NCBI GenBank assembly: GCA_038046625.1
Contig: JBBSVV010000003.1
Location: forward strand, 8,993-72,992
Source of the DNA: an archaeon
Lineage (GTDB): Archaea; Iainarchaeota; Iainarchaeia; Iainarchaeales; Iainarchaeaceae
Length of the DNA stretch: 64,000 nt
Reading direction: 5' to 3'
The notes under the pieces: generated by a model
The model's input: the letters and a program-made list of their open reading frames with translations, nothing else
What the model was told of the DNA's origin: nothing
Databases searched by the model: none
Shown here: piece after piece, positions 3,125 through 55,665 of the stretch
Layout of the letters: each line of letters starts with the position of its first letter
How positions within the stretch are numbered: position 1 is the first letter of the stretch
Made by a program: the position numbers and the translations under genes

Positions 3125-3137
3125 TTTTACTGCACCT

Positions 3138-3204
3138 CGCCGTTTTCGACCGGCGGTACCGATTGCCCCGCCTTCGGCGGGACTTGGCTCGCTTTGCTCG
3201 CAAT
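3138..3204 (+). repeat. Two-hairpin dispersed element, copy E1
   Basis: cgccgt-tttcga-ccggcg, gtaccg, then attgc...tc-gc-ttt-gc-tc-gcaat. Confidence 0.7.
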
Positions 3205-3215
3205 ATAGTTGCTCA

Positions 3216-3878
3216 TCATTGCACCGTAACCGTTTGCTGGAACTGGTCCACATTATTTTCCGTGTTTAGGTTAAAATAGATTGTGGTGCCGCCTTTTTGT
3301 ATCGGTATGAGCGAGTAGTCTATCTGCTTGCATTCAACAGCCTTGAGCGTTATCGTGTCTGTTTTGTTCGGCTCGGAAAAGAATCCTTTTTCGTGGTTTT
3401 CCGCTATTTTCACCTGCTTTTCCGTTGCGGTGTTGTTGCATGCTTCCACGCTGAACGCAAAGCTCTTGCCGAAGAGTATGTCGCTTGGAAAGCTCATTGT
3501 CAGGGTTATTTCCTGCTTTGCCCTTAGTACAACGAGCTTTTCGATTGTCGAGTGGAAAGGGCTCTGCACAATTATTGTTGCCTGGTTCGCGCTTATAGAG
3601 CCGGTGTAAATGCGTTGCTCCTCGTTGGGCGCAAGTGAAGCAAACATGTTCAGGTCTTTCGGTTCGCCTTCTTCCTCGCGGTATTTCACGGTTACGTTGT
3701 TGATTTGCCTGTCGGTGGTGTTTTTCAGGTAAATTTCCTTTTGGCCGTTTTCCTCGTTGAATTTTTCCTCGATTGCGAGGCCAGTGTTGAACAAAAAAAG
3801 GTATATGAGCATTATTCCGAATAATGCGTAAACCGCCAGGAAGAAGAATTTCGCTTTTTTCGCTTTTTCCGGCATCAT
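3216..3878 (-). CDS. Membrane-anchored hypothetical protein with Ig/CARDB-like extracellular part
   Basis: N-terminal TM helix, beta-rich remainder with several NxT sequons. Confidence 0.7.
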   Translation of the reverse strand: MMPEKAKKAKFFFLAVYALFGIMLIYLFLFNTGLAIEEKFNEENGQKEIYLKNTTDRQINNVTVKYREEEGEPKDLNMFASLAPNEEQRIYTGSISANQATIIVQSPFHSTIEKLVVLRAKQEITLTMSFPSDILFGKSFAFSVEACNNTATEKQVKIAENHEKGFFSEPNKTDTITLKAVECKQIDYSLIPIQKGGTTIYFNLNTENNVDQFQQTVTVQ

Positions 3879-3933
3879 TGTTTTGCATCCCTCATTTTTG
3901 CGTTTCCGTTCCATAACTTGTTTTTTGTTTATT

Positions 3934-4686
3934 TTAAGTGTTTTGTTTTCTTCTCAAGATTCCGCGCTGGAAATCCGTTATGAGTATCATTGCTGCCGCG
4001 TTCGTGTCGGGTGCGCCGTGCTTGCGGAGCTTTTTGCGTGCGAACGCGATTTTTTCGAGCAGCTCTTCCCCGTCTTTTGCGGTTACCCCGTAGGTGTCGA
4101 GTATTTCCTCTTTTTTTGTTTCAAGCAGCACATCCGCGACATCTATGCCTGTTTCCTCGAGGTTCTTGAGCTGCTGCGCGTTTTTTGCGCAGAGCAGCGC
4201 AATGAGCGTTTCATCGTGCTCGTTGAACGGTATTACTCCCGGAGAGTCAATGAGCATTGTTTGTTTGTTGATTCTCACAAATTGTACGCCTCTTGTGAAT
4301 CCGGCTGTGGGCGAGGTTCTCGCGCTTTTCCTTCCTGAGAGTGCGTTGATGATGCTGCTTTTTCCCGTGTTGGGATAACCAACTACGGCTATCTTGGTTT
4401 CGCCGGAACCGCTGAGTTTTCCAAGGGCTTCCTTGAGCCTCATTATGCCTTTCCTGTTTTTTGCGGAAACAAAAATGCTTCCCGGGAGCATGCTTTTTTC
4501 CTTTTTCATTGTGTTCAGGCTTGTGAGATCAGATTTGTTTATTACGCGGAGCAGCTTTTTTCCCTTTTCTTCAACGAGCCTTTCAAGGTGGATGTTGATG
4601 CTTTTCTGGGGGAAGCGCGCATCCAGGACCTCAATTATAATGTCCGCTTCCTTGACAAGATTTTTCACGATTTCAGAGTAGTTCAT
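3934..4686 (-). CDS. Circularly permuted GTPase, RbgA/YlqF family
   Basis: EVLDARFP, INKSDL, VSAK, GYPNTGKSS, DSPG in G4-G5-G1-G3 order. Confidence 0.92.
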   Translation of the reverse strand: MNYSEIVKNLVKEADIIIEVLDARFPQKSINIHLERLVEEKGKKLLRVINKSDLTSLNTMKKEKSMLPGSIFVSAKNRKGIMRLKEALGKLSGSGETKIAVVGYPNTGKSSIINALSGRKSARTSPTAGFTRGVQFVRINKQTMLIDSPGVIPFNEHDETLIALLCAKNAQQLKNLEETGIDVADVLLETKKEEILDTYGVTAKDGEELLEKIAFARKKLRKHGAPDTNAAAMILITDFQRGILRRKQNT

Positions 4687-4699: not shown

Positions 4700-4762
4700 C
4701 AACAAGAAATTTTGTCCGGTACTGGGCAAGGTCGAATGCATTGTGCTCGCTCCGCCCGCATT
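4700..4762 (+). repeat. Two-hairpin dispersed element, degenerate copy E2
   Basis: Starts caacaag; second stem aatgc...tc-gc-tcc-gc-cc-gcatt. Confidence 0.5.
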
Positions 4763-4768
4763 TTGAGT

Positions 4769-4999
4769 TCATTTAATTGCCCCCTTGATTATGTGTGCCG
4801 CGGCATTGAATAAGTATATGCCGCCGAGGATTATTATTGCGAACACAGCAACCACGCCTATTGGGTTTGCTTCGGAAAACAACCCGTTTTTGAGGAATGA
4901 GTTCTGCATCACGCCGTACAGCGCGAGGAGAATCATGCTTCCGAGAAGTGCGAGCAGCGCTATTGAAACCAAACTTATCTTTTTTGCCTGTTCAAGCAT
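4769..4999 (-). CDS. Small two-TM membrane protein
   Basis: Two hydrophobic helices; sits in an operon downstream of pth2. Confidence 0.7.
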   Translation of the reverse strand: MLEQAKKISLVSIALLALLGSMILLALYGVMQNSFLKNGLFSEANPIGVVAVFAIIILGGIYLFNAAAHIIKGAIK

Positions 5000-7768: not shown

Positions 7769-7823
7769 GCTATTTACTAAGTTCTTCATCGTATAAAAAA
7801 CTTTTGCTGTTTTCGCACCGGCA

Positions 7824-7877
7824 CGCCGGAAACCGCCGGCGGTACGGTGTACTATCTTCGCCTTTGGGCTCGATAGT
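7824..7877 (+). repeat. Two-hairpin dispersed element, copy E3
   Basis: cgccgg-aaaccg-ccggcg, gtacggtgt, actatc-ttc-gcc-tttg-ggc-tc-gatagt; flanked by the direct repeat cgcaccggca (7814-7823, 7886-7895). Confidence 0.85.
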
Positions 7878-7941
7878 CCATGCTCCGCACCGGCAACCAC
7901 CCCCTATATGGTTTTAAAAGCCTCGAAGATTTGCTTCTTTT

Positions 7942-14715: not shown

Positions 14716-14726
14716 CAACCCTTTCG

Positions 14727-14776
14727 CGCCGGAAACCGCCGGCGGTAGGGCGACTATCTTCGCTTTGCTCGATAGT
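14727..14776 (+). repeat. Two-hairpin dispersed element, copy E4
   Basis: cgccggaaaccgccggcggtagggcg, actatc-ttc-gc-ttt-gc-tc-gatagt. Confidence 0.85.
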
Positions 14777-17296: not shown

Positions 17297-17404
17297 GCGA
17301 AAGAATTAGGTCTGGAAAAAGTTAAAATGGGAGTCTTGTGCCTTTTTGGGATTTATAGCAGGCCAATAAAATATTTTGGCGATATTTTTGGTCTGCTATC
17401 TAGC

Positions 17405-17453
17405 ACCTGGCAGAGCAAAGCTCTGCCGGGCCTCGTACCCTACGGGTAGAAGG
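17405..17453 (-). repeat. Hairpin module B
   Basis: Reverse complement tacccgtagggtacgaggcc-cg-gcagagc-ttt-gctctgc-cagg, nearly identical to 29296-29345. Confidence 0.8.
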
Positions 17454-17495
17454 AACCACATTAAAATGCCGAAAACTTTCGTGGTTTGCTATAAA

Positions 17496-17942: not shown

Positions 17943-18127
17943 TGAAAAAACCTTATTTTTAGCGGCATTATTTGTCTAGTATTCTCTATTGAGTTACCTT
18001 TAAAAAGGTTGATTTCAGCCTTTTTCTTTCTTGCGAGAAAGAAAAACGCTGGCGAAAAAGAAAGAGACGGGGCATATTTTTGGCCATAGAACCTTTAATT
18101 AAGTGTTTTTCACCCATTTTTTTGCAC

Positions 18128-18151
18128 GGGCCCGTAGCTCAGCCAGGATAG
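18128..18151 (+). pseudogene. Orphan tRNA 5' fragment (Arg-like)
   Basis: GGGCCCGTAGCTCAGCCAGGATAG is a canonical archaeal acceptor 5' strand plus D-loop, about 30 nt after a tttaatta TATA box; no anticodon or T arm follows. Confidence 0.8.
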
Positions 18152-18154
18152 CGC

Positions 18155-18306
18155 CCACCTCCGCAATCGAATTTTTTCCTAAGACTCGGATTTTCTCGGC
18201 TTAAACCTTTGCACACTTCAACCCCTGCTTTTGGTGCAAAGGGTTTAATGCCTCCAAAACCCGCAAGACGTCTTTCGGAAAAAATTTCATCATTTAGCGG
18301 AGGTGG
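18155..18306. repeat. Long imperfect palindrome (about 150 bp)
   Basis: Nested pairs ccacctccgc/gcggaggtgg, gaattttttcc/ggaaaaaatttc, ttaaacctttgcac/gtgcaaagggtttaa. Confidence 0.85.
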
Positions 18307-18310
18307 TCAA

Positions 18311-18424
18311 ATGGTCGAAATTCCGATTCCAAACAAAGAAGAAATAGATTTAGCAGTAGAGGCTGAAGAGTTGACGGACAGGGAACTGTGGATTCTTAGC
18401 AAGTTTGGAGGTGATTTTGAATGA
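18311..18424 (+). CDS. Small acidic protein (37 aa) coupled to the endonuclease
   Basis: GGAGGTG RBS, MVEIPIPNKEEIDLAVEAEELTDRELWILSKFGGDFE; ATGA overlap with the next gene. Confidence 0.6.
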   Translation: MVEIPIPNKEEIDLAVEAEELTDRELWILSKFGGDFE

Positions 18425-19260: not shown

Positions 19261-19310
19261 GCACCCCGCCTTCGAAGCGGGCGATGAGGGTTCGAATCCC
19301 TCCGAGCCCG
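19240..19310 (+). tRNA. tRNA-Arg (TCG), atypical D-arm
   Basis: Acceptor gggctcg/cgagccc, anticodon arm cccgc-cttcgaa-gcggg, T arm gaggg-ttcgaat-ccctc; CCA not encoded. Confidence 0.85.
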
Positions 19311-19488
19311 CTGCACTTTCACGCAGAATCCTTGATTCTGCTGAAACCTGCACTAAAAAGAAAGAGTGCCGGAAAAAGAAAAGACCCCTGTTTCTGGCTC
19401 GGCAAGCCGTGCTTGGCCGGTTTCAATGTGGCCAGGGCTCGCTTTCTTTTAGGCAAGGAATTAATACTCGCAAGTAGTTGTATTTTTG

Positions 19489-29220: not shown

Positions 29221-29260
29221 ATGACAAGAGTCGCTGTTCTCGAGAAGGACCGTTGCATCA
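29221..29260 (+). pseudogene. Duplicate 5' end of ABCE1 (MTRVAVLEKDRCI)
   Basis: 35/40 nt identical to 29430-29469, all five differences synonymous. Confidence 0.9.
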
Positions 29261-29364
29261 CAACAGTTTCGTCTGTTGGGTGCGAGTACTATCTCCTTGT
29301 ACCCGTAGGGTACGAGGCCTCGCAGAATCTTCTGATTCTGCAAGGTCGCTTGGGCTCGATAGTA
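29261..29364 (+). repeat. Two-hairpin dispersed element, copy E5, with nested module B
   Basis: caacag-tttcgt-ctgttg, ggtgcgag, tactatc...[module B]...gc-ttgg-gc-tc-gatagta. Confidence 0.85.
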
Positions 29365-29429
29365 AGTTTGGTTATGGGTGTGAGGCACGATACTTCGCAG
29401 TTGACCTGCTTTGCGTTTGGTGATGTGAA

Positions 29430-31208
29430 ATGACTCGAGTAGCTGTTCTGGAAAAGGACCGTTGCATCAATGGCACGGGCTGTGATTACATATGCGGCCA
29501 CGTGTGTCCAGTGAACCGCGCGGGAAAGGACTGCATTGTTCTAGATGAGGTTACAAACAAGCCCGTCATCAGCGAGGAGTTATGCATCGGCTGCAACATA
29601 TGCGTAATTAAATGCCCCGTGGATTGCATTTACATCGAGAACCTTGTCCAGGAACTGAACGAGAATCCTGTGCATCGCTTCGGCGAGAACGCGTTCAGGT
29701 TCTACAGGCTCCCCACAATAAGGAACGGAGAAGTAGTTGGGTTGATTGGCAGGAACGGAATAGGAAAAAGCACTATCCTGAAAATAATTTCTGGCCAGCT
29801 GGTTCCAAATTTGGGGGATTACAATTCAAAAGGCTCTTACGATTCGGTGATAAATTTTTTCAAGGGGAAGGAATTGCAGCGGCTTTTTTCCTCGCTGAAA
29901 GACAAGCGGATAAAGGTTTCTTACAAGCCGCAGAACATAACTGATTTGCCCAAGGCGGCGAAAGGCACTGTGCGCGAACTCCTGAAAAAAACCGATGAGC
30001 GCAAAAAACTTTCCGAGGTTTCGGAGTTGCTGGGCCTCGGAAAAATTTTGGACAGGGAACTCTCGCACTTGAGCGGAGGAGAATTGCAAAGGGTTGCGAT
30101 TGCCGCGGCCTCATTGAAGGATGCTGATTTGTATGCTTTTGATGAGCCAACTTCTTATTTGGATGTGAGGGAGCGCCTCAATGCCTCCAAGGTTTTGCGC
30201 GGTCTTGCGGAATCCGGAAAGGCGGTTGTTTTGATTGAGCATGACCTCGCGGTTCTTGATTACTTGAGCGATTATGTGCACCTTCTTTACGGAAAAAAAT
30301 CGGTTTACGGAATAGTTTCAAAGCCGAAGAGCGTTCGCAATGGCATTAACGAGTTTTTGGAGGGCTTTGTGAAGGATGAGAATGTTCGGTTCAGGAGCAC
30401 AGAGCTGAAATTTGAGGTCAAGCCTTCCACGGATTTCAGGAAAAAGAAAGTTATTGCTAGCTACCCGGAACTCAAAAAGTCCTTCAAGGGATTTTCCCTC
30501 GAGGCTGAGGCGGGGGATTTGCGCGAGGCCGAGGTTCTGGGAATAATGGGCCCCAATGCAATAGGCAAAACGACTTTCGTGAAGATGCTTGCCTCCGTTG
30601 AGAAGCCAGATTCAGGGAAGATTGATTTTTCCATGCATGTTTCCTACAAGCCACAGTACCTTGTGCCTGAAAAGGGCGTTACTGTTGGTGATTTTATTGA
30701 TTCTCAGGACCTTGATCTCTCGGTTTTCAAGAATGAGGTTGACCGAAGGTTGGCAATTACAGAGCTGGAAAATCACTTGCTTGAGGAATTGAGTGGCGGC
30801 GAGCTCCAGAAGATTGCTGTCGGAGTGGCGCTTTCGCGCACGAATTGCGAGCTCGTTCTTTTGGATGAACCAACCGCTTTTGTTGATGTTGAAGATAGGC
30901 TGAACATGGCTGATGCAATCCGTTCCGTAACAGATGCGAAAAAGAAGATTTGCATGGTTGTTGACCACGACATTTTGTTCCAGGATTATGTTTCTGACAG
31001 GTTGATGGTTTTTTCTGGCGAGCCCTCCGTGAAGGGCTTTGCGGGCGCCGCAATGTCAATGCATGACGGGATGAATTCTTTCCTCAAATCGGTTGGAATT
31101 TCTTTCAGGCGCGACCCGGAAAGTGGAAGGCCGCGTGCAAACAAGTTGCATTCGCAGCTCGACCAGGCGCAGAAGAAGAAAGGTGAGTATTACTATCTCG
31201 TGGATTGA
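29430..31208 (+). CDS. rli: Ribosome recycling ATPase ABCE1 (Rli1)
   Basis: N-terminal FeS cysteines, GRNGIGKS, LSGGELQ twice, GPNAIGKT, RRDPESGRPRANK. Confidence 0.97.
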   Translation: MTRVAVLEKDRCINGTGCDYICGHVCPVNRAGKDCIVLDEVTNKPVISEELCIGCNICVIKCPVDCIYIENLVQELNENPVHRFGENAFRFYRLPTIRNGEVVGLIGRNGIGKSTILKIISGQLVPNLGDYNSKGSYDSVINFFKGKELQRLFSSLKDKRIKVSYKPQNITDLPKAAKGTVRELLKKTDERKKLSEVSELLGLGKILDRELSHLSGGELQRVAIAAASLKDADLYAFDEPTSYLDVRERLNASKVLRGLAESGKAVVLIEHDLAVLDYLSDYVHLLYGKKSVYGIVSKPKSVRNGINEFLEGFVKDENVRFRSTELKFEVKPSTDFRKKKVIASYPELKKSFKGFSLEAEAGDLREAEVLGIMGPNAIGKTTFVKMLASVEKPDSGKIDFSMHVSYKPQYLVPEKGVTVGDFIDSQDLDLSVFKNEVDRRLAITELENHLLEELSGGELQKIAVGVALSRTNCELVLLDEPTAFVDVEDRLNMADAIRSVTDAKKKICMVVDHDILFQDYVSDRLMVFSGEPSVKGFAGAAMSMHDGMNSFLKSVGISFRRDPESGRPRANKLHSQLDQAQKKKGEYYYLVD

Positions 31209-38248: not shown

Positions 38249-38983
38249 TCACCCACTCTGGCCGAATGTGACTTTTGTTTCGGATCCGATTTTGTCCACT
38301 TTTGCAATGAATATGGCGCCCTGCACTCCGGTGTTTACCTCACTCGGCGAGCATGAGAATGAGGCTCCTGCATCGAGCTCTTTCGTGCATTTTTTGTCTG
38401 CATCAGGATCCAAATCCAAGGCCAAGTCATCATCCGCATTGTTTTTGCATTCTTCGGGGACGCGGGCTGAAATCTGTTCAAGCCCCGCATCAAGCGGAAC
38501 AACAAGGTATGAGAAACCTATCCCTGCAAAGTTCGTGGACGGTGGGGCCGCAGGAACGCAGTAAATTTTTGATTGCGGCGGAATAACAATTTCTATGGTC
38601 TGCCTTGTTCCGGCGCCGGATATTGAAACGTATTGTGCCGCGTTCACGAGCTTGTCGGCAGAGGCGCGGAGCTTCGCGAGGTTTGCGGTGTCGTTCATTG
38701 CATTGCTCGCAATGTCCGCGTTCGGCTGTATTATTGCGACTATGTAAAGCAGTGAAACCACGAGTATGAGCAGAAATTCTATGCTCGCCTGCCCCCGCCG
38801 GAAACCGCCGGCGGTATGGTGCCCTATCTTCGGTTTTGGCCTCGATAGGTCTTGCTTCGCAATTTTCCCGTTCAAAATATCAAGTTCCACAACAGTTTCG
38901 GCTGTTGGGTGCGATAGCCCATGCTGTCGCATGGACTTGGCGTTGCTTCGCAACGCAGGCTTATTCAAATAATCAAGTTCCAT
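38249..38983 (-). CDS. Pilin-like protein whose leader runs through two repeat elements
   Basis: RRG/QASIEFLLIL; no in-frame start codon lies between repeat E6a and the cleavage site; true start uncertain. Confidence 0.75.
   Translation of the reverse strand: MELDYLNKPALRSNAKSMRQHGLSHPTAETVVELDILNGKIAKQDLSRPKPKIGHHTAGGFRRGQASIEFLLILVVSLLYIVAIIQPNADIASNAMNDTANLAKLRASADKLVNAAQYVSISGAGTRQTIEIVIPPQSKIYCVPAAPPSTNFAGIGFSYLVVPLDAGLEQISARVPEECKNNADDDLALDLDPDADKKCTKELDAGASFSCSPSEVNTGVQGAIFIAKVDKIGSETKVTFGQSG
38796..38849 (+). repeat. Two-hairpin dispersed element, copy E6a
   Basis: cgccggaaaccgccggcggtatggtgc, cctatc-ttc-gg..cc-tc-gatagg (compensatory change). Confidence 0.85.
38890..38963 (+). repeat. 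Hairpin element copy E6b
   Basis: caacag-tttcgg-ctgttg-ggtgcga, as in E5; flanked by ttcaaaatatcaagttcca / ttcaaataatcaagttcca. Confidence 0.8.
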
Positions 38984-40089: not shown

Positions 40090-40090
40090 A

Positions 40091-40261
40091 TCAGCTCATT
40101 AGAGTTGATACGGCCGAGTCCCTGTTTTCAAGCACTTGTGCCTGTGCCTTGTCCGCTATTTGGGAAATGTTGAAGGCGATGATTGTTACCGCAATGACCA
40201 GCATCACCGCAAAAAGGACGGTGAGCAGGTATTCGATTGAAACCTGCGCCTTCTCATCCAT
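40091..40261 (-). CDS. Small pilin (56 aa)
   Basis: Manual ORF MDEKA/QVSIEYLLTVLFAV. Confidence 0.85.
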   Translation of the reverse strand: MDEKAQVSIEYLLTVLFAVMLVIAVTIIAFNISQIADKAQAQVLENRDSAVSTLMS

Positions 40262-40282
40262 CAAATCACATTTATTGTTGGG

Positions 40283-40576
40283 TTATGTTGCCGTTGCAGT
40301 GCAGCTCGGGTATGTTCCGCCGCAGTTGTATGGCCTGCCACCGTTTGCTCCTTGTATGGTGACTTGCCTTGCGCCTCCAGTACTTTTAGTGGCGCAAACC
40401 TGGCCCGAATCAATTGCTGTTGATTGTGTACAAAGAGATGCTGCTGTCGTGTTGCCGGTTTGCCCTGTACCAGTATTAGTTATTCCCAGCAACAGTGTAA
40501 TCACTATCACCGCCACGAGAACCGCGCCTCCAATCAGGAGCAGGTATTCCAGTGCACCTTGTCCTTTCTTTTCCAT
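40283..40576 (-). CDS. Probable major pilin
   Basis: MEKKG/QGALEYLLLIGGAV; strong GGGAGGG RBS; Thr/Gly-rich. Confidence 0.9.
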   Translation of the reverse strand: MEKKGQGALEYLLLIGGAVLVAVIVITLLLGITNTGTGQTGNTTAASLCTQSTAIDSGQVCATKSTGGARQVTIQGANGGRPYNCGGTYPSCTATAT

Positions 40577-40615
40577 TGCTTTTCCCTCCCTTTTTTTAGT
40601 ATCATAAGCTTTTTT

Positions 40616-40756
40616 TCAGCCGATTTTATTGGCTTCGCCGCCAATGCTGCCGACCAGGCTTTTCAGGAAGAAGCCTATCGCGGCCGCAACCACGACCGCA
40701 GCCCCGAGAAGCAAAAGCACTTCTATGGAACTTTGGGCTTTTTCTCCTTCAAGCAT
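40616..40756 (-). CDS. Small pilin (46 aa)
   Basis: Manual ORF MLEGEKA/QSSIEVLLLLGAA. Confidence 0.82.
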   Translation of the reverse strand: MLEGEKAQSSIEVLLLLGAAVVVAAAIGFFLKSLVGSIGGEANKIG

Positions 40757-41709
40757 TATCCGGCACCTCCAACCAACAGGCCTGAGAGTATCTCCGCAGC
40801 TATGTAGGCTGAATATGCGATAAACAAGAGGATTGGGAAGTATATAATACTTTTCCCGGCCTTTCCGTCGCGCATGATGCTTATCATCACGCTTGTGATC
40901 GCCGTTTCAATGAAGATGTACGCTTCTATCGAGATGCTTATTATGCCGAGCGCCTTTATGGCTGAAGCCTGTTCCGCGGCCGAGGCCACTCCTGCTGACG
41001 CGGTGAGGAGTACGTGCGTTATTGTTGAGACAAATCCGAAAATCATGGGTGCGATTGCGCCTCCCGCTGCAAACATGAATATTACCTGCATTGCGGTTCT
41101 CGCCTTTCTGTCCTTGTTTATCCTGAATGCCTCGCGCACATCCTCCGAAATTTCTTCGAGCACTCCAGCAAGGCCCGCCCCTGCCCTCACAGAGTCGATT
41201 ATTATCGTTATTGTCCTCTTCACGAGCCTCGAATCCACGTTTTCGGACAGTGTTTTGAGCGAGTTGTCGAAGTTTTCGCCTTCCTCGAGCTTCCTGAGCA
41301 CTTCGTTCATTTCCTTTTTCAATGGCCCGTATTCTGATGTCGCGATTTCCCTCAATGCATACTCGTATGTTCCCCCTGCCTTTAGGGTGTCCGCCATCTG
41401 CCTCAATGCGTCGGGCAGCGCTTCCTCTATTTCCTCAATTCTTTTTACCGCCATCAGGTATGGGTAACCAATCATGAGGTCGATAACCACGACGAACGCG
41501 AGCACGCCGACCTGTATGTTCCTCGTTATTCCCGCCTGCCCCAAAAAGTACCAAGTGCTCAACCCGATAATTACGGAAGCGAGCACCGAGAGCATTATCC
41601 AGAGCACTGGGTCCACCCTGAATTCCGCGCTTCTCAGGTAGTCCGCATATTTCTGCACGAACTGGATTTTGTTTATCAGCGGTATCTTGCTTGCAAGCCT
41701 TAGGGCCAT
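40756..41709 (-). CDS. TadC/T2SS-F membrane platform protein
   Basis: IEEALPDALRQMADTLKAG, YGPLKKE. Confidence 0.92.
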   Translation of the reverse strand: MALRLASKIPLINKIQFVQKYADYLRSAEFRVDPVLWIMLSVLASVIIGLSTWYFLGQAGITRNIQVGVLAFVVVIDLMIGYPYLMAVKRIEEIEEALPDALRQMADTLKAGGTYEYALREIATSEYGPLKKEMNEVLRKLEEGENFDNSLKTLSENVDSRLVKRTITIIIDSVRAGAGLAGVLEEISEDVREAFRINKDRKARTAMQVIFMFAAGGAIAPMIFGFVSTITHVLLTASAGVASAAEQASAIKALGIISISIEAYIFIETAITSVMISIMRDGKAGKSIIYFPILLFIAYSAYIAAEILSGLLVGGAG

Positions 41710-41728
41710 TTCATCCCCTCCTCCCGCA

Positions 41729-41812
41729 CAATAGTTTCGTCCGAGAATGCGCCTCGGAAGGGTGCCAAGATTGTTGGGTACGACTGCTATCTTCGCCGTG
41801 GGGCTCGATAGT
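41729..41812 (+). repeat. Two-hairpin dispersed element, copy E7
   Basis: caatagtttcgt[insert]attgttgggtacga, gctatc-ttc-gcc-gtgg-ggc-tc-gatagt. Confidence 0.8.
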
Positions 41813-41837
41813 AAAAACATTTGCGTGTGTCATTTTT

Positions 41838-42992
41838 TCATCCCACCTTCGGTTGGGTTATTTTTAAGTAGAACACGAGGAACCCAAGCACAAGCGGCAT
41901 TGCAACCAAATAAATTGCCGCTATTGCTATCGGGGACAATGCAACGCTTCCCACGGAAATCGGTGCATTGGTTATGGAGCCTATTATTCCGATGAAAACC
42001 GGCACCACTATTGCGGCGAAAATGTATATTACTCCGAAGAAGTTCATTTTTTCCGAGAACTCGCGGACCGCAATGCGCATGTCGAAGCTCACGTCCTCGG
42101 CAATTGTGTTCATTATGTCCGAGAGGTTTCCCCCGGTTTTCATTGCGCGTATTATGTGCAGGAGCGCGTTGCGCAGCGCCTTTGACTGTGTCCTTAAAGC
42201 GAAGTGCCTTAGCGCGTCTTTCGTGTCCGTTCCTTCCTCGACCTCGTTTATTGTGCGCGCGAATTCTTCGCTCAGCACGCCGTAATCTGAGGTCGCTATT
42301 GTCTGCAGTGTTTTGTAGAGGCCTATTCCGGACTTTAATTCGGTCGCCATGTGCCTCAATGCGAAGGGCAGCTCCACGCTCATGGCGTCGCCCCTTCTTT
42401 GTGCGTTGCTTTTCGGTACGAGCATCAGCGCTACAAGCGCGAACATTCCCACTGCGCCGGAAATGAGGATTGAGTAAAGCAGGTTCACCTTGTACACGAA
42501 GCTCAGTGCGGCAATGATTGCAAATGAAAATATTCCCGCAAGCGTTGCGGCCGCAAGGGAAAGCGCGAGCCATTGCTGGAGCGAGTACTTCATGTTTGCG
42601 GAGTAAAGGTAATACCGCACATCATTCGCGAGCGGCAATTTTTTTATGAGGCGTGAAACCGGGTCAAGCGGCAGCCTGAGCATCAGGTAAAGTTTTCCAA
42701 GGCTCTTTATCGCAGGGCTCTGGAATTCCTGCAAATCTTCAACGGTCTGGACGTTTATTTTTGCCTGTTCGCCCTCGGCAATTATTCCCCTCAGCTCCCC
42801 AAGCTTTCCCCCGACTTCCTCGAATTCAATGCCCTGTTCACGGTACTTTTTTTTCATGCGGTCGACTATTTTTTCTACCTTGTCCATGTCCACGGTTTCC
42901 TGCGCGTCCTTTCCCGCAGTCGTCTGCTTTTTTTCTTCCTTTTTTTCCTCGATTTTTTTTCTCAGGTCGCTCAAAGTGCTCATGGTGTTCAC
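41838..42992 (-). CDS. TadB/TadC (T2SS-F) membrane platform protein
   Basis: ELPFALRHMATELKSGIGL, YGVLSEEF, TGGNLSD. Confidence 0.92.
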   Translation of the reverse strand: MNTMSTLSDLRKKIEEKKEEKKQTTAGKDAQETVDMDKVEKIVDRMKKKYREQGIEFEEVGGKLGELRGIIAEGEQAKINVQTVEDLQEFQSPAIKSLGKLYLMLRLPLDPVSRLIKKLPLANDVRYYLYSANMKYSLQQWLALSLAAATLAGIFSFAIIAALSFVYKVNLLYSILISGAVGMFALVALMLVPKSNAQRRGDAMSVELPFALRHMATELKSGIGLYKTLQTIATSDYGVLSEEFARTINEVEEGTDTKDALRHFALRTQSKALRNALLHIIRAMKTGGNLSDIMNTIAEDVSFDMRIAVREFSEKMNFFGVIYIFAAIVVPVFIGIIGSITNAPISVGSVALSPIAIAAIYLVAMPLVLGFLVFYLKITQPKVG

Positions 42993-45900
42993 TTTTTTTT
43001 CATTGAGTACTGCTTTACCGCTTCGGAGATTTCTTTCATGCTTCTCCTGTTTTCCTTCACGAGCTTTTCGAGGTATGCCGCCCTGTCCTTGACCTCGTCA
43101 TCAAAGTCCTTTTTGGACATTCCCGCGAGTTCCTGGAGTTTTTGGGCGTAATTTATCTGGGCTTTTGTCCTTTTTAGGGAGTCTGTTACCGGGTCGCGCA
43201 GGTATACGGCTTCGGTTTTCGGCTTGCCTTCAAGGGCGCCGGTCACTTGGGCAATTTCGGTTATTCTCCTTATTGTCCCCATTTTCCTGTCGTGCAGCCT
43301 GTGCTGTACAACTATTATGTCGAGCCCGGAAAGCATTACTTGCGGCACGTTCATCGGCGGGTTTGTCACCCTCACGATTGTTTCCTGTGCCGAGTTTGCG
43401 TGCACTGTTCCGAGTGAATTTCCCACGATTATTCCCTGTGCCACGAAATTATGGGGGTTCCTGCCGGTTTGCCTTTCTTCGCTTACCGTCAGGTCATATA
43501 CAAATCCGTTGTATGGGTATGAGTGTATGGCAATTACCTTATCCCAGAAAATGTCGGATTCCGCGAGCAGCTTAAGCTTTGAGGATTCAATTCCCGCAGA
43601 TTCAAATGCCTTGGCGAGTGCCCCGACTGCACGCCTGCTCGGCGTCCTTTCCCTTCTTTTGTAAAAACTTATTGCTCCTTGTGTTAATCCTGCCATTCTC
43701 GCAATTTCAGAATTGCTGTACCCCTTTTCTTTTTTTGCCGTTTTGAGCAGTTTTATTATGGTGCCGTTGCATTCTATGGTGTCGGTATTCGTGTTGCTTT
43801 CTTTTCCCCTGCCGAGCAGTTCCTCTATTTTCCTTATTTTTTCGGGGAATTTTACCGGGTAGGTTTTGTAGAATTTTTCCACTTGGTCTATTCCATAAAT
43901 ATAGAGCCTGTACCATCTGCTGTTGTGTGCGCGTGACTCGTATTTTCTGGAGGTTATCCCTTCCGTCAATAATGCATAGCGGAAAAAATCTATGTAGTGC
44001 TCGTTTGCGCATGAAATGACGATTGCATTGTTGTTTGCATCAACATGCCCTTCTGCGTCAAAAAAGCCCGCGACAAACCCGCGCAGGGAGTTCGTGTAGT
44101 GTGAATTGGACATTTTTGCTTTCTGCCTGCTTCCCGCGGGGATGTCAAGCATTTCCATAATCTTTGCGGTTTTCTTGAACCCGCTTATGTGCGCTTCATA
44201 GCATTGCTTTTGCGGGCGCGGGTTCACTATTTTCACGTGTGTCCCATCGAGGTTTTCTTTCATGTAATTTATGAATTTCGGGATTATGGTTTCCTCTTCT
44301 GTGTAGAGGTTTATTGAGCCTTCATTGCACAGGTATTGCTTGCCGTTTTTTTTCCTTTGCCTTTTGTAATAGGTTATGTTTCCGTCACCGTGCAGCAGGC
44401 CACTCCAGTATTCGCTCTCGGTTTCTTTTGCGTTTTCTTCCCTGAGCAGCTTTCTCGGGGTTGCAATGTTTTGCCCTTCCTTGAGAGTGTCCGCCCTTGC
44501 CTGTTGAATGTTGTCCGCAAGAGTATAGAATGGGTGGTTTCCCGTGCAGGTTAGTTCGCTGCCGGAAGCAAGCTTTATGTGGTAAACGTTGCCTGTGAAA
44601 GGCCTGCGCCTTGCCTGCACGATTTTTTGCCTGTTCACTTTCCCTTTGCCGTCCACAGAGTTGATGTGCTCATCGCCCACAGTGCACACTTCCCACTCTC
44701 CTTCTTTCCGGCTGCCGTTTTTCTGCAGTTGCTCTTCCGTGAATTGGCCGATTTCGCGTATTCCCGAAGTCAGCGCTATTTTTGCTTCGCCCGTAAGGCA
44801 ACCGTCATGCCCCGTGTTGAATGCCGTGAACAATGAGAACGCCTCATCATGCCTGATTTCGCCGACAATTATCCTGTCAGGGCGCATTCTCAGGGAATTT
44901 TTCGTGAGTATGTCAAGCGTTACCTCTCCGGTTCCTTCAAGCCCAGGCGGCCTTGCTTCCATCCTTATCCAGTGCTTCAAGGGAAGGTTCAGTTCGGCCG
45001 TGTCCTCAATGGAAATTATCCTTTCTGTTTCCGGTATGAATGTTGCGAGCACGTTCAGCGTTGTGGTTTTTCCGGAGCCGGTTCCGCCTGAAATCAGTAT
45101 GTTTGCGGGTTTCGTGCCCAAGCCATCGGTGCATGCCCACAGGAATGCGGCGGTTTCCGCTTCAATGGTTTTGTTTTTTATGAGGTCTATTATTGTGTAA
45201 GGGTCTTCGCGGAACTTTCTTATTGTCAATGTGGAGCCCTGCACCGAAGCGGGGGGAATTGTTGCGTTGACCCTGCTTCCATCAGGGAGTCTCGCATCAA
45301 GGAGCGGGCTGCTGATGTCCACCCTTCTTCCTATTTGCCTTGCAATCCTGTTCACGAGATCCTGTATTTCATTGTCGTTGTAGAACTCGATGTTCGTTAT
45401 CATCATTCCGTATTTCCTGTGGAAAATGTAAACCGGCCTGTTCGGCGCGATGACCATTATTTCCTCGAGCTTGTCATCGTGAATCAGGTCGTCTATTATT
45501 CCGTACCCTATCATTTCCCGTATTACCGTGTTCGCATAAAAATCAAACCGCGTTTTTGGTATGTTGAGTTCCGGGGAGTCGCGGAGAATCTCAAGCACTT
45601 TCTGGTAGTAAACGTTCTTTCTCTGCTCCGGGTCGCGGATCTTGTAAGGCGTAATGCTGATTACCCTTGTCGCGGCCTCCTTGATGGTGTTGATTATTGT
45701 TTTTTCCGCCCCCACAGGCCTTGGCACGGGTATCCAGTAGTAAAGCAGGGGCTGTCCCGGGAGCTCGTAAATTTTGGCGTTTCCATAGGAATCAATGAGC
45801 TTTTTTTCGGATGTTTCCAGTTCCCTTTCCGCGGTGGATTTTTGTTCCTCGGGAACGCTTTCCGGGTTTTGCGGCGCGTTGATATTTTCCTGTGGCGGGA

Positions 45901-46228
45901 GCGTGCTCTTTATTTCCGCTATTTTCTGCTTGGCCAGCATCACTTCTTTGGCGGCTTTCTTCTCTTCATCTTCCTTGTCCTCGCTTTGCGCCTTTTCAGG
46001 TTCTTCGCTGCGCATCTGCTCAAGTATAAGGTTTTTTTTGCCCGGCAATGGCTTCGGTTCCGTGTGCCATGGCTTTTTCCCCTGGGCTTGTTGAATCTGT
46101 GCGGGATTTTTTTTTGCGGGCTCGGGCTTCACGGCTTTTTTTTGCGCGGCGTCTTCCGGCTTTCCGGGTTGTTTTGCGTCTTTTTTTGCCTTTGCCTTTT
46201 CAAATAGCGCGTCGAGATAATCTGGCAT
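42989..46228 (-). CDS. Type IV pilus assembly ATPase (CpaF/VirB11) containing an intein
   Basis: LDARLPDGSRVNA, GGTGSGKTT, RMRPDRIIVGEIR, NTGHDG/SLGTVHANS. Confidence 0.94.
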   Translation of the reverse strand: MPDYLDALFEKAKAKKDAKQPGKPEDAAQKKAVKPEPAKKNPAQIQQAQGKKPWHTEPKPLPGKKNLILEQMRSEEPEKAQSEDKEDEEKKAAKEVMLAKQKIAEIKSTLPPQENINAPQNPESVPEEQKSTAERELETSEKKLIDSYGNAKIYELPGQPLLYYWIPVPRPVGAEKTIINTIKEAATRVISITPYKIRDPEQRKNVYYQKVLEILRDSPELNIPKTRFDFYANTVIREMIGYGIIDDLIHDDKLEEIMVIAPNRPVYIFHRKYGMMITNIEFYNDNEIQDLVNRIARQIGRRVDISSPLLDARLPDGSRVNATIPPASVQGSTLTIRKFREDPYTIIDLIKNKTIEAETAAFLWACTDGLGTKPANILISGGTGSGKTTTLNVLATFIPETERIISIEDTAELNLPLKHWIRMEARPPGLEGTGEVTLDILTKNSLRMRPDRIIVGEIRHDEAFSLFTAFNTGHDGCLTGEAKIALTSGIREIGQFTEEQLQKNGSRKEGEWEVCTVGDEHINSVDGKGKVNRQKIVQARRRPFTGNVYHIKLASGSELTCTGNHPFYTLADNIQQARADTLKEGQNIATPRKLLREENAKETESEYWSGLLHGDGNITYYKRQRKKNGKQYLCNEGSINLYTEEETIIPKFINYMKENLDGTHVKIVNPRPQKQCYEAHISGFKKTAKIMEMLDIPAGSRQKAKMSNSHYTNSLRGFVAGFFDAEGHVDANNNAIVISCANEHYIDFFRYALLTEGITSRKYESRAHNSRWYRLYIYGIDQVEKFYKTYPVKFPEKIRKIEELLGRGKESNTNTDTIECNGTIIKLLKTAKKEKGYSNSEIARMAGLTQGAISFYKRRERTPSRRAVGALAKAFESAGIESSKLKLLAESDIFWDKVIAIHSYPYNGFVYDLTVSEERQTGRNPHNFVAQGIIVGNSLGTVHANSAQETIVRVTNPPMNVPQVMLSGLDIIVVQHRLHDRKMGTIRRITEIAQVTGALEGKPKTEAVYLRDPVTDSLKRTKAQINYAQKLQELAGMSKKDFDDEVKDRAAYLEKLVKENRRSMKEISEAVKQYSMKKK
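43418..44800 (-). mobile_element. Intein with LAGLIDADG endonuclease and HTH (461 aa)
   Basis: Starts CLTGEA, TGNHPF, WSGLLHGDG, FVAGFFDAEG, VYDLTV...HNFVAQGIIVGN, then +1 Ser. Confidence 0.95.
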
Positions 46229-53150: not shown

Positions 53151-53201
53151 GGTGAATGTTTTTAATATCTTCCAAATACACGTATTTCAGGGTTTATTGG
53201 C

Positions 53202-53951
53202 ATGGATTTGCGCGGAGCATTGAACAGGTATCTGAAGAATTTTTCCACTGCATTTTCTTTCGTTTTGCTTTTGGTGTTCGTTCTTCCATTCATTCTTGGC
53301 AAGGAGGGCGAGTTTCTTGCGAGTTCCTTTGTTTCCTCGGCAACCGTTTTCATTGACTATGGGTTCATCAACGAGCCGCTTCTTAACTCGGCCCTTCTTC
53401 TCGCGCTGGCGTTTGTTTTCCTTTTCTGCTACTCCGTGCTTGTCTGCCTAATGGTTCTTGCGGTGAGAGGCGATTTGAGCAACGTGAAGATGAATAATTA
53501 CCTCGCGGAAAAAATCGGGAAGTTCGCTTTCAGGTACTTCAGGTTCCTCGCGCTCTTCACGATTATTGCGTCCATTGCGGGGGCAATTCTCATTGCTTAC
53601 GGTCTGCCTATCTGGGTGCTGAATTTGCTGCTGATGTTTTTGTCGGCTTCGTTCCTTTTCTTGCCCCAGACAATCGTGGTTGATGAGGAAAGCCTGGGCA
53701 GCTCCATTTTCAGGAACTGGGACTTCATTTCGAAGAACATGTTTTCTTTTGTGCAGGTCCTGGCCCTCGGAGTCGTGAGCCTGTTCCTGCTCCAGCTCAT
53801 AGAATTTGCCCTTGATTACTTCTTTTTTGTCGGGAGCTTCGTTTCCCTGCTCATCGGGGTTGTTTTCCTCGTGCCTTTCATCGAGGTGGTGAAGACACAG
53901 ATTTACATGCACCGGTTCGGCCTGATCAAGAGCTATCATCCTTCAGGCTGA
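53202..53951 (+). CDS. Hypothetical polytopic membrane protein
   Basis: About six TM helices. Confidence 0.75.
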   Translation: MDLRGALNRYLKNFSTAFSFVLLLVFVLPFILGKEGEFLASSFVSSATVFIDYGFINEPLLNSALLLALAFVFLFCYSVLVCLMVLAVRGDLSNVKMNNYLAEKIGKFAFRYFRFLALFTIIASIAGAILIAYGLPIWVLNLLLMFLSASFLFLPQTIVVDEESLGSSIFRNWDFISKNMFSFVQVLALGVVSLFLLQLIEFALDYFFFVGSFVSLLIGVVFLVPFIEVVKTQIYMHRFGLIKSYHPSG

Positions 53952-55491
53952 GCTTTACGGCCGGGCAGTCGTTCAGCAATTCAAGCGCCTCCTTCATTGT
54001 TTCGGCCACGTAAACAAACCCGTATTTTCTCTTTTGCCTTGTGCCCCTCATGCTGAACAGCATTTCCTGCACCAGTTTTCTGTCCTCGTGCAGGCCGAAC
54101 CTGCGTTCGGCTTCAGGTTCCGGCATTTCCATTGCGGCCAGGTTGTGCCTGTGAATCAGCGCAATTATGTCGTCCGCGAGCTTCGGCGCGTCCGCAACGC
54201 CCATTGTTTCGGCGCAGCGCTTTATTCCGGCAAGGCTTACAGCGCCAAGGCTTTTCAGGAGCATCCATTCCTCGAAGTAAGGCCTTGCCTTCAGCCCCTC
54301 CTTTTTCTTTTCGCATAATCCTGAAATTTTTTCCGCAATAATCTCCAGCCTTTCAATGAAGCGCTCCTCGTTTCCTGATTCCAAAGCTATTTTTTCCAGG
54401 TTTATTGCGGTGAGCTGAAGTACGCCGTCCGCGTTCCCGGTCAATACTCCAAACTGGTACGCGGTGGTTTTTTCGCTTGAGTTGTTCAGCACCAGTGCGT
54501 TGTTGAGGCCGCTTTTTTCGAGCAGCTTGAGCTGGTACTTGGAGTCGATTGATACGCTAAGTTCGAACTCTTCCGGGTTCGAGGAAAGCAGCATTGCCGC
54601 AATGGCAGTCGCGTTCTCCTTTCTCTTTGAAAGGCCTTCCCATTCGTAGCCGCTGAAGAGCGCAAGTTCGGCGCAGCGCTTCCCCGTAATAGAGAATATT
54701 TTTTCTGTCTCCAAGATTTCTTCGCGGAGTTTCCTCGGGTTCACGGGCTTTTCCGGCGCGATGGAAAAATTGAATGCCTTCAGCGTAACCGGGTTCGTGC
54801 AGAACCTGTCGAGTTTTGCGGCCTCGACAGGCGTCGCATAAGTTTTTTCCCCTGCAAAGAATTTCGAGTGCGCAAAAGTTTTCGTGGAAAAATCTTCGGC
54901 ACCGTAAATGTGTATCGTGCCGTTGAAATGCAGTTCCCTCGCGTCCTTTGTTATGGCTGAGAGCCAGTTGTACTCCCTGAGTATTTCCCTGTCCTCGAAC
55001 AATCCTGCGTTCAGCCTCTTTTTCACCTCGAATACCGGGAGGCCGAGGCGCACGTACTGGCCGTGTATCGGCTCGTGGCCGTATTCAAGCAGCTTCACGT
55101 TCACCATTTCGCGTATTATATGGGTGTTCAGATACCCTATTTTCAGGTCCTTTATCTTGTCCTCCACTTCGCTCCCGATTTTTTCTGCAACGTGCCTGCT
55201 GATGCCTGTTTCCTTGAGCAGCGACTTGATTATGTTGCCGCGGTCGAAAGACTCGAGCTTTTCGCGTGAAGTGAATACCTTGAGTTCCTCGAATGAAATG
55301 AATGTTTTTGCCGCCTCGGGATTGAGCTTTTCGAGCGTTTCCGCGGCCTTTCTCCTGAGCTGCTTTTCCCCGCCTTCAAAAGATTCGAGCTCCTTGATTA
55401 CCTTCACCACTTCCCACTTAGTGGCGCCGCTCTCCTGGCATTCGAACGCTATCCTCTGTATTACTTCGCTGATGGGTTTTTTCTCTTCCAC
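53926..55491 (-). CDS. ATP-cone protein with degenerate class III ribonucleotide reductase (NrdD-like) body
   Basis: VFTSREKLESFDRGNIIKSL...IREMVNVKLLEYG...YVRLGLPV ATP cone; LHFNGTIHI and AINLEKIALE resemble NrdD; GTG start assumed. Confidence 0.75.
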   Translation of the reverse strand: MEEKKPISEVIQRIAFECQESGATKWEVVKVIKELESFEGGEKQLRRKAAETLEKLNPEAAKTFISFEELKVFTSREKLESFDRGNIIKSLLKETGISRHVAEKIGSEVEDKIKDLKIGYLNTHIIREMVNVKLLEYGHEPIHGQYVRLGLPVFEVKKRLNAGLFEDREILREYNWLSAITKDARELHFNGTIHIYGAEDFSTKTFAHSKFFAGEKTYATPVEAAKLDRFCTNPVTLKAFNFSIAPEKPVNPRKLREEILETEKIFSITGKRCAELALFSGYEWEGLSKRKENATAIAAMLLSSNPEEFELSVSIDSKYQLKLLEKSGLNNALVLNNSSEKTTAYQFGVLTGNADGVLQLTAINLEKIALESGNEERFIERLEIIAEKISGLCEKKKEGLKARPYFEEWMLLKSLGAVSLAGIKRCAETMGVADAPKLADDIIALIHRHNLAAMEMPEPEAERRFGLHEDRKLVQEMLFSMRGTRQKRKYGFVYVAETMKEALELLNDCPAVKLSLKDDSS

Positions 55492-55546
55492 AGATGCTTT
55501 TAGTTCAAAAAAGTTCTTTAAATTGCCGCATCCTCTTGTATTTTTT

Positions 55547-55665
55547 ACTATCGAGCCCTCAAAAGGCGAAGATAGTTGCCCCAACGGGTCGGCAGCAAGA
55601 AATGTTGGGCGTATATTCATTTGTCGACCCGTTGTCCGCCGTGGGCCTGCGGCGCGAAACTGTTG
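55547..55665 (-). repeat. Two-hairpin dispersed element, copy E8, with nested module C
   Basis: Reverse complement caacagtttcg[insert]ccgttggggca, actatc-ttc-gcc..ggc-tc-gatagt. Confidence 0.8.

Follow-up and report, generated by a model that had tools for sequence, protein, structure and literature searches.

Pseudoknotted two-hairpin elements with recent turnover and one-sided, foreign-type flanks in a class of DPANN-type archaea

The stretch of DNA analysed here (the window) comprises 64,000 nt of contig C3 of the archaeal assembly G000 (positions 8993-72992; GenBank assembly GCA_038046625.1, contig JBBSVV010000003.1). This host assembly, 986 kb in 57 contigs with ~48% G+C, is 84.6% complete, and archaeal-type genes encoded in the window include those for an ABCE1-like protein, NurA, a prepilin peptidase and a T2SSF pilus protein. 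Among these genes lie copies of a short element with no open reading frame (ORF) within it, 55-120 bases in size (50-125 nt by copy listing), which on one strand consists of a first hairpin (hairpin 1), an apparent 4-bp pseudoknot formed by the hairpin-1 loop and the linker that follows, and a second hairpin (hairpin 2). A preliminary description, made from the sequence alone, had interpreted these copies as a mobile element that is joined precisely at hairpin 1 and carries a donor allele of the flanking gene on its far side. Here we find that the elements have turned over recently between close genomes, that the incoming DNA always begins at the same base, and that the DNA to the right of this base is of foreign type. 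Positions are given in window coordinates, and features lie on the plus strand unless stated otherwise.

In the host genome, a simple sequence pattern of hairpin 2 (CTATCYYC..CTCGATAG) occurs at 18 places, seven of which are on contig C3. Eleven canonical copies, three of them from the window, were aligned to give a covariance model with 15 base pairs (R1), and the window was scanned with this model with filters off. Eight matches were obtained at E <= 0.012 (at 7822, 38794, 14725, 41764, 55543 on the minus strand, 29259, 38888 and 3136), the next best having an E-value of 0.91. The preliminary description had counted about nine copies with one shared layout, and R1 found eight of the nine. 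The remaining one (E2, 4700..4773) has no R1 match, a DNA fold with z = +0.52 relative to shuffles, and ~90% identity in a sister genome; this stretch is at most an old, degenerate relative of the E1 type. The shared layout, too, stands in part. Six copies (E3, E4, E5, E6a, E7 and E8) have a 6-bp stem with a 6-nt loop, a linker, and then the succession ACTATC / TTC / GCC..GGC / TC / GATAGT, with additional hairpins within the same frame in E5, E7 and E8. In E1 and E6b, however, only hairpin 1 and the linker are common to the family, and the second domain is different.

One canonical copy is E3 (7824..7877; 78.7 bits with R1), whose hairpin 1 spans 7824-7841 and whose hairpin 2 spans 7851-7877, the pseudoknot pairing 7832-7835 with 7845-7848. 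E4 (14727..14776) is also canonical, and is preceded by half of another hairpin 1 (CAACCCTTTCG, 14716-14726). E6a (38796..38868) adds a small trailing hairpin to the canonical form, and E7 (41729..41812) has a 30-nt hairpin (~41739-41768) nested in its hairpin-1 loop after TTTC. E8 (55547..55670), the sole copy on the minus strand of the window, is composed of half a hairpin 1, a CGCCGC-type hairpin, a long extra hairpin and hairpin 2. In E5 (29261..29363), hairpin 1 occupies 29261-29278, and hairpin 2 (29288-29363) contains two extra long hairpins (fold z = -5.25). The variant copy E1 (3137..3209) consists of hairpin 1 and linker followed by ATTGC..GCAAT enclosing a UUCG-type hairpin (R1 match 3136-3185, 19.2 bits, E = 0.012), and in the variant copy E6b (38890..38958) hairpin 1 and linker are followed by two other hairpins (23.5 bits, E = 0.0013; fold z = -5.26). 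Nested hairpins can thus occupy either loop, i.e. that of hairpin 1, as in E7, or that of hairpin 2, as in E5, E8 and the counterpart of E4 in the sister genome.

The family extends well beyond the window. R1 has 28 matches at E < 1e-3 in the host genome (47 at E <= 1), and matches in 18 of 22 other genomes of the same family, where the number per genome ranges from 0 to 30. Sampling across the class gave a match at E <= 1e-4 in 33 of 151 genomes, which belong to 10 of 29 families. This range of copy numbers within one family and the patchy presence across the class argue that the copies are not fixed like ordinary terminators, an outcome that the preliminary description had said would refute it, and their presence likewise varies between close genomes. 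A search of the whole window against Rfam 15 at gathering thresholds found a tRNA-Arg as the sole match, and at E <= 1 the 20 element loci searched gave matches to adjacent tRNAs only and none on the element. No prior description of the family was found in the literature searched or in Rfam 15.

We analysed base pairing in an alignment of 86 matches (from the window, other stretches of the host genome and the sister genome, plus 40 copies in 15 other genomes). Over these 86 copies, the 15 stem pairs of the model are paired in 96.8% of cells, and 14 of the 15 changed on both sides, in 211 cells, which agrees with the earlier claim that the stems covary while pairing is kept. None of 500 shuffles reached the real values, and slid registers were paired in 20-42% of cells; these figures come from an alignment fitted to the R1 structure and from copies that are related. 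In every subfamily, the hairpin-1 loop ends in four bases that can pair with bases 4-7 of the linker, e.g. ACCG/CGGT, GCCC/GGGC, GCTC/GAGC, ACCT/AGGT, GCCT/AGGC, GCTT/AAGC, TCG/CGA and GCG/CGC. These four pseudoknot pairs are absent from R1 and were counted afterwards on the alignment, where 87.9% of their cells are paired. Pair 13-67 is GC in 33 copies, UA in 21 and AU in 15; pair 14-66 is CG in 78; pair 15-65 is GC in 35, CG in 26 and UA in 11; and pair 16-63 is CG in 24, UG in 12, UA in 11 and GC in 7. Judged by this pattern of pairing, the predicted fold is an H-type pseudoknot with a 6-bp stem, a 2-nt loop, a 4-bp stem and a 3-nt return loop, although these bases might instead pair when hairpin 1 is open.

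The plus strand of the element has 34 G-T cells and 14 A-C cells (p = 0.0055), and this excess indicates that the strand as written is the one under selection for folding. The stem and internal loop of hairpin 2 (CTATC-TTC..CTC-GATAG) are nearly invariant across the class, which suggests that hairpin 2 may be read by a protein. A K-turn in the minus strand of hairpin 2 was considered and rejected, since the covarying register is plain Watson-Crick; a bulge-helix-bulge intron, a group II intron remnant, a hammerhead and a pistol-like fold were ruled out by inspection and by the lack of an Rfam match.

To follow the elements between genomes we used the sister genome (G001), which belongs to the same genus and is syntenic and 88-96% identical across the window. 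Four window copies at three loci (E1; E5; E6a with E6b) are absent from the syntenic sites. At the E1 site, 3137-3219 are missing and a single TGCACC is present; at the E5 site, 29261-29429 are missing and one 40-nt abce1 start remains; and the 167 nt that hold E6a and E6b are replaced by 8 nt. E3, E4, E7 and E8 are present in both genomes, and three of them differ in inner modules: in the sister genome E4 has ~84 nt more within hairpin 2, E7 lacks the nested hairpin, and E8 has different inner modules. In the reverse comparison, at least six of the 30 sister-genome copies are absent or replaced in the host genome (L022, L023, L030, L037, L040 and L049). Among the remaining sister-genome copies, four are without a syntenic flank of >=150 nt and one (L039) gives partial matches only, while the rest have something at the site. 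There has been recent turnover between these close genomes, and empty-site alleles, as sought for a mobile element, occur in both directions. Contigs of four sequencing runs covering 28501-42500 break inside E5 and E7 and include no empty-site joint, so they are uninformative on polymorphism.

Flanking duplications had been described at four window copies, and all four are real. At E3, 10 nt are duplicated exactly (left 7814..7823, right 7886..7895). At E1, the left TGCACC (3131..3136), which is identical to the sister genome, lies in an old gene end (V-Q-stop, followed by the next gene's ATG, on the minus strand), and the right copy together with a tract of foreign type (3220..3240 for both) makes the new end of a minus-strand gene at 3216-3914. 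Relative to the sister genome, the right side of E1 has five mismatches in the first 30 aligned nt and then two in 198. The remnant by hairpin 1 keeps the CAG-TAA of the sister genome, and the working end reads T-V-T-V-Q-stop, as against A-I-T-V-Q-stop there. At E6b, 19 nt are duplicated with two mismatches: the left copy (38871..38889) is the old end (W-N-L-I-F-stop, minus strand) of a Peptidase_A24 gene, and the right copy (38964..38982) is the working end (W-N-L-I-I-stop) of this minus-strand gene, now at 38965-40089.

The fourth case is E5. Its left copy (29221..29260) comprises the old first 13 codons of the abce1-like gene and is identical at 40 of 40 positions to the only copy in the sister genome. 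The element is followed by a spacer (29364..29429) with a GGTGAT five bases before the ATG, and then by the right copy (29430..29469), which is the working start of the gene. This right copy differs from both the left copy and the sister genome at five positions, all of them synonymous and all within its first 25 nt, after which it is identical to the sister genome. Over the first eight codons it is nearer to alleles of another genus than to those of its own. The start of abce1 has also been hit in other genera (G003 and G007), as judged from five of nine abce1 loci tried among those listed, namely the five that fitted a start-motif pattern. G003 has a copy at the same abce1 site as the host genome, with a decayed left copy (ATA for ATG) and a TATA-like box before the new start. 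In G007 (L058), the left copy is 24 nt long and identical at 23 of 24 positions to its empty sister G002, and the right copy has seven synonymous differences from G002 in 17 codons. In the host genome, the old abce1 frame meets no stop anywhere in E5 (29221-29432) and closes with a TGA overlapping the new ATG (ATGA), and in G007 the frame from the old ATG is likewise open through the element and ends 5 nt before the new ATG; this could reflect either translational coupling or chance.

We searched for direct duplications systematically in 82 copies, taking as the anchor the base before hairpin 1 and as the search space the 200 nt after hairpin 2, with left and right flanks paired from different loci as a control (n=482). 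An anchored duplication (score >= 10, 10-41 nt) is present in 18 of 82 copies and 3 of 482 controls (Fisher p = 1e-13), i.e. duplications are commoner than at random junctions. The left copy ends directly at hairpin 1 (0 nt) in 14 of the 18 cases and 1-2 nt away in the others, upholding the proposed precision of the joint, while the right copy starts anywhere from -4 to 62 nt after hairpin 2. Overall, duplications measure 6-41 nt and right spacers 0-62 nt. At two young insertions (L022 and L030), 26-28 resident bases were replaced rather than duplicated. Incoming DNA invariably begins with the first base of hairpin 1. Position -2 relative to hairpin 1 is a C in 52 of 86 copies, and in the anchored left copies (17 of the 18, those with the best scores, read by eye) the last two bases are CA in seven and CG in three. 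In another genome, G002, tandem arrays occur in which a 34-nt flank and a 58-nt element form one repeat unit (G002:C116:1243-2749; L069, L076).

The two sides of the insertions differ in their divergence. At the eight loci polymorphic between the host and sister genomes, the nearest 30 aligned nt have 7 mismatches in 240 positions on the left and 28 in 240 on the right, compared with 81 in 2318 in the far flanks (right vs left p = 3e-4; right vs far p = 3e-7; left vs far p = 0.85). The right flank is thus 3-4x more diverged. Together with the purely synonymous changes in abce1 (five of five at E5), this indicates that the right flank comes from another lineage, in keeping with the far-side donor allele that had been proposed. 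These comparisons show the sequence to the left of hairpin 1 to be the resident one, often a gene or tRNA end that is now redundant. The right side, which comprises the element, the spacer and 15-45 nt at the near edge of the adjacent gene, is of a foreign type that merges into resident sequence. The transfer is one-sided, and is accompanied by a duplication or replacement of variable length.

An ordinary miniature transposon with target-site duplication, whose right flanks came to look foreign through later recombination or local mutation, would account for the many near-perfect duplications abutting both ends (34/34, 33/33 and 40/41 nt, with 0-7 nt between hairpin 2 and the right copy). However, both the duplication (6-41 nt) and the spacer (0-62 nt) are variable in length, and terminal inverted repeats are absent. 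Moreover, the excess divergence is found on the right side only, beside the element and at young insertions, and the divergence in abce1 is purely synonymous, which is not expected from error-prone repair. We consider this alternative improbable, and reject a classical transposon with target duplication as a full account because the one-sided foreign flanks remain unexplained by it.

We instead favour, at slightly better than even confidence for the explanation as a whole, the view that these are ORF-less, non-autonomous mobile elements of a DPANN-type archaeal class, which fold in a single strand, enter with their right flank, use homology there, and are joined non-homologously at hairpin 1. 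The donor would be a single-stranded piece from another allele or lineage, with the folded element at its 5′ end, and its 3′ flank would recombine by homology. The structured end would be joined to a resident 3′ end without homology, or with 1-2 nt of microhomology, sites after C-A or C-G being weakly preferred. Where the resident end extends beyond the start of the flank homology, the intervening stretch would be duplicated and both neighbouring genes would stay whole. Making or joining this end is probably the task of a trans-acting protein that recognizes the invariant part of hairpin 2. Under such a mechanism, essential genes survive, flank-plus-element tandem arrays such as those on G002:C116 can form, and hybrid joints can arise between types that share hairpin 2. 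The overall process would resemble homology-facilitated illegitimate recombination, with a programmed donor end. The latter process was reportedly described by de Vries and Wackernagel in 2002 for naturally transformable bacteria; as here, one side is said to be anchored by homology and the other joined at microhomology, resulting in an insertion with a deletion or duplication. It differs in that its donor joint is arbitrary, while the joint of the archaeal element is always the first base of hairpin 1.

Several observations weigh against the mechanism that we favour. Kinship among the copies inflates all p-values. No anchored duplication is seen in 64 of 82 copies. At L037, left and right are equally diverged (1/30 each) and the left copy has an indel in addition, and at L040 the 23-nt copies are identical; both loci are equally well explained by a local or same-population donor, or by a true target duplication. 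The empty E5 site could also have arisen by deletion between the two 40-nt copies, which leaves the direction of the event unproven and its polarity unaffected. For a classical pseudoknot, a loop of 3 nt is short for spanning a 6-bp stem. We infer the single-strand and 5′-end steps. Finally, among the Pfam families whose profiles we searched in 23 genomes of the same family, the host included, no enzyme tracks the presence of the element. The IS200/IS605-like transposase Y1_Tnp (PF01797) occurs in 9 of 23 genomes, with seven matches in the sister genome, several of them at contig ends, and none in the host assembly. GIY-YIG (PF01541) occurs in 16 of 23 as a single ~90-aa gene (97 aa in the host, C7:6237-6446) that is missing in the sister genome, and TnpB (PF07282) is above its cut-off in 3 of 23.

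The mobile element could, in one version, need no transposase of its own. It would then be selfish DNA whose pseudoknot caps the 5′ end against 5′-3′ exonucleases and flap nucleases and so defines this end exactly, with the piece of host gene serving as a homing arm; it would spread by host recombination alone, delivering an intact replacement gene end. We think this version unlikely, though worth stating.

A further alternative, which is essentially that of the preliminary description and differs from our favoured mechanism only in naming the enzyme class, is that an HUH-type enzyme (an IS200/IS605-like Y1 transposase, or the Rep of a virus or plasmid absent from the bins) nicks the base of hairpin 1, remains bound to the 5′ end and carries out a one-ended, rolling-circle-like transfer to a site at C-A or C-G, with recombination of the run-on flank afterwards. 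Six of the 86 copies have a hairpin 1 of CGCCGN type with the first half of a CAACNG-type one ahead of it, always cut after TTTCG, and this fixed place for the resident end in the hairpin-1 loop suggests a site-specific nick. The folding of one strand and the regionally uniform orientation of the copies would also be as is generally understood for IS608. With G001 left out as syntenic, rows of the match listings give neighbouring non-tandem copies on one contig as co-oriented in 22 of 25 pairs (p = 8e-5; host genome 9 of 11, other genera 13 of 14), a count that is overstated if neighbours arose by local copying. Such uniformity would fit a replication-linked single-strand step, under our favoured mechanism as well; GC skew was too confounded by gene strand to give a leading-strand call.

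The distribution of Y1 genes bears on this alternative in both directions. All four element-free genomes of the family are without Y1, but so are 10 of the 19 element-bearing ones, some of which may be explained by incompleteness. Of the 19 Y1 matches in the family, one, in the sister genome, lies within 500 nt of a listed R1 match, at a distance of 360 nt. Counts of elements and Y1 genes have a correlation of rho 0.36 (p = 0.09), phylogeny being uncorrected in this and the other count correlation below. The insertion sequence (IS) that encodes a sister-genome Y1 (G001:C12:1463-1957, L049; one IS copy read) has GC-rich end hairpins unlike hairpins 1 and 2. Contig C6 of the host ends exactly at the border of this IS, so unassembled Y1 copies are possible in the host genome. 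As usually characterized, Y1 transposition also uses a fixed 4-5-nt target and makes no duplication. All in all, an HUH-type enzyme is a real possibility, if still clearly on the unlikely side.

These genomes are rich in homing endonucleases, both as LAGLIDADG inteins and as free-standing genes. LAGLIDADG_3 (PF14528) is found in 21 of 23 genomes, with 0 to 30 matches each and 19 in the host genome, most of them inside very long ORFs, and its counts correlate with those of the element (rho 0.63, p = 0.0013). The window, which had been said to contain no cognate enzyme, does hold two LAGLIDADG_3 domains, at 43865-44086 on the minus strand in an ORF of 1079 aa (42989-46228) and at 62803-63033 on the plus strand in an ORF of 1289 aa (60106-63975); because they lie inside long ORFs, they are probably inteins. 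One could therefore imagine that the elements are a by-product of homing-endonuclease traffic, in which breaks are repaired from foreign alleles and the hairpins are passengers, or stops of repair synthesis that mark the edge of a conversion tract. However, each such endonuclease cuts one long site, while the elements occupy dozens of unrelated loci, and no LAGLIDADG gene adjoins the polymorphic copies studied. The correlation may reflect no more than how much mobile DNA a genome carries or how often it exchanges DNA, and the covarying pseudoknot and invariant hairpin 2 are left unexplained, so that we consider this explanation improbable.

Insertion via an RNA copy would explain why the 5′ end is fixed, why flank and duplication vary, and why the fold is RNA-like. 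A read-through transcript would carry the right flank, as in 3′ transduction by LINE retroelements, with a promoter, a self-cleaving fold or an exonuclease stop fixing its 5′ end at hairpin 1. Yet the reverse transcriptase profile RVT_1 (PF00078) has matches in 0 of the 23 family genomes and did match control genomes, which makes an RNA route unlikely. The flank is the start of a gene at some loci and the end of an opposite-strand gene at others, so no single type of transcript fits, and foreign-type flanks would require RNA to pass between lineages. We regard this route as very improbable.

The covarying pseudoknot and the tolerance of G-U pairs are typical of RNA, and could suggest that the elements are instead functional RNAs or cis-regulatory modules kept by the host, e.g. 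for protecting the ends of mRNAs or tRNA precursors or for ribosome hand-over, and exchanged passively with neighbouring genes. The open frames that run through E5 to the ATGA overlap and, in G007, to 5 nt before the new ATG would agree with this, as would the positions of some copies beside tRNA genes. In six cases the first base of hairpin 1 is 0-2 nt from a mature tRNA end. It abuts the 5′ end in four of these (L064, L065, L072 and the tRNA-Ser on contig C36 of the host genome), leaving no room for a usual promoter, and the 3′ end at tRNA-His and tRNA-Arg(gcg) on contig C7 of the host genome. However, the elements have no preferred orientation to their neighbours: according to a crude ORF-based gene call, 13 left neighbours point away and 14 toward the element, and 15 right neighbours point toward and 10 away. 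The elements also vary in presence among genomes that are 88-96% identical and number from 0 to 30 within the family, they leave old gene ends behind, and they have no Rfam match. A host-kept function thus appears to us an improbable explanation for the family. Because a GATAGTA stands ~30 nt from the 5′ end of the tRNA in L064, L065 and L072, hairpin 2 was considered as a TATA/BRE promoter of the abutting tRNAs; this idea was abandoned, since the copy at tRNA-Ser is a variant without the motif and the copies have no gene-ward orientation.

We compared the element with known systems of mobile DNA. Dispersed intergenic hairpins with structure-preserving substitutions, the use of one strand and a possible link to replication direction are shared with REP/REPIN-RAYT and IS200/IS605 palindrome elements. 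However, the REP/REPIN unit is an inverted doublet of one imperfect palindrome, whereas here two unlike hairpins are combined with a pseudoknot, and the single-copy Y1 gene flanked by repeats that marks REP/RAYT systems was not found (PF01797 has 0 matches in the host assembly and 7 in the sister genome, several at contig ends in the manner of an IS). A derivative of IS200/IS605 would be expected to have end hairpins like those of an autonomous IS, and those of the IS on G001:C12 (one copy read) are different. Under its usual definition it would also have a fixed 4-5-nt target without duplication, as opposed to 6-41-nt duplications and a preference for C at -2 only. Classical miniature inverted-repeat transposable elements (MITEs) of the DDE kind have terminal inverted repeats and a duplication of fixed length, while the two ends here are unlike and the length is variable, and a non-LTR or SINE-like retroelement would depend on a genomic reverse transcriptase (PF00078, 0/23). 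REP/RAYT repeats, IS200/IS605 derivatives and classical MITEs each fail in at least one of the defining features tested.

Mobile endonuclease ORFs that carry a replacement gene end, as in Allomyces atp6 and similar cases of intron-less homing, are alike in that the insert brings a gene end of foreign type and leaves the resident end as a remnant (here at E1, E5, E6b, L049 and in G007). They differ in encoding an endonuclease that cuts the target, while the archaeal element has no ORF and occurs at dozens of unrelated loci. Viral exonuclease-resistant RNAs (xrRNAs) are pseudoknotted, with a loop that pairs just 3′ of its hairpin. They may be compared in topology only, in that an end lies at the 5′ base of the fold; in the archaeal element this end is seen in DNA.

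The nearest described systems, by a likeness of kind and not by homology, are the hairpin repeats of mitochondria, i.e. the double-hairpin elements of Allomyces and the GC clusters and hairpin-forming elements of fungi and sponges. These are likewise short and ORF-less, with stems kept and loops free, and they consist of modular units that merge, nest and form tandem arrays, are patchy between relatives, and live among many homing endonucleases. Passages of two papers state that GC clusters cross species by homologous recombination in conserved flanks and are flanked by 2-3-nt repeats (PMC4478555, PMC2800124), and a passage of one of these says that Allomyces double-hairpin elements lack flank duplications (PMC2800124, citing Paquin et al. 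2000). The archaeal element differs in residing on a chromosome rather than in an organelle, and in having duplications of 6-41 nt that end at a fixed end of the element, with a right copy of foreign type. It also has the pseudoknot, of which the portions of PMC2800124 and PMC4478555 concerned with mitochondrial repeats report none. The family would thus belong to the small structured non-autonomous mobile elements, a kind already known, and its mode of insertion may be new.

If the favoured mechanism is true, archaea of DPANN type with genomes of ~1 Mb carry an active, class-wide mobile element without a gene of its own, which can land in overlapping gene junctions with neither gene being killed. 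The foreign-type flanks would then be direct sequence evidence of frequent DNA exchange between lineages, in organisms whose gene transfer is hard to study, and the fixed end at a covarying pseudoknot would link the folding of nucleic acids to the end-points of recombination. The elements also matter for annotation, since they create decoy starts and stops and over-long ORFs, and since recoded duplicates of gene ends can be mistaken for paralogues or assembly errors. The longest ORFs at 38249-38983, 40756-41820 and 2471-3253 run through elements, which places naive start-codon calls for these genes too far upstream; better starts are available, e.g. at 41709 and 3124.

The window contains other repeats as well. 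A second family, ~140 nt long, is represented at 17354-17493, with inverted ends TTTATAGCA..TGCTATAAA and at least eight copies in the sister genome; it holds a GTACCC..GGGTAC hairpin module that is also present, in the opposite orientation, in hairpin 2 of E5. Within 18151-19435, an ORF (18421-19260; no Pfam match at 1e-3) and a tRNA-Arg(tcg) gene are absent in the sister genome, which has 45 nt instead. A third type of hairpin (CTTTTCTTTT..AAAAGAAAAG), found in the window at 18025-18075 and 19355-19385, flanks many tRNA genes genome-wide and stands, on one or both sides, beside ~12 of 25 tRNAs as counted by eye.

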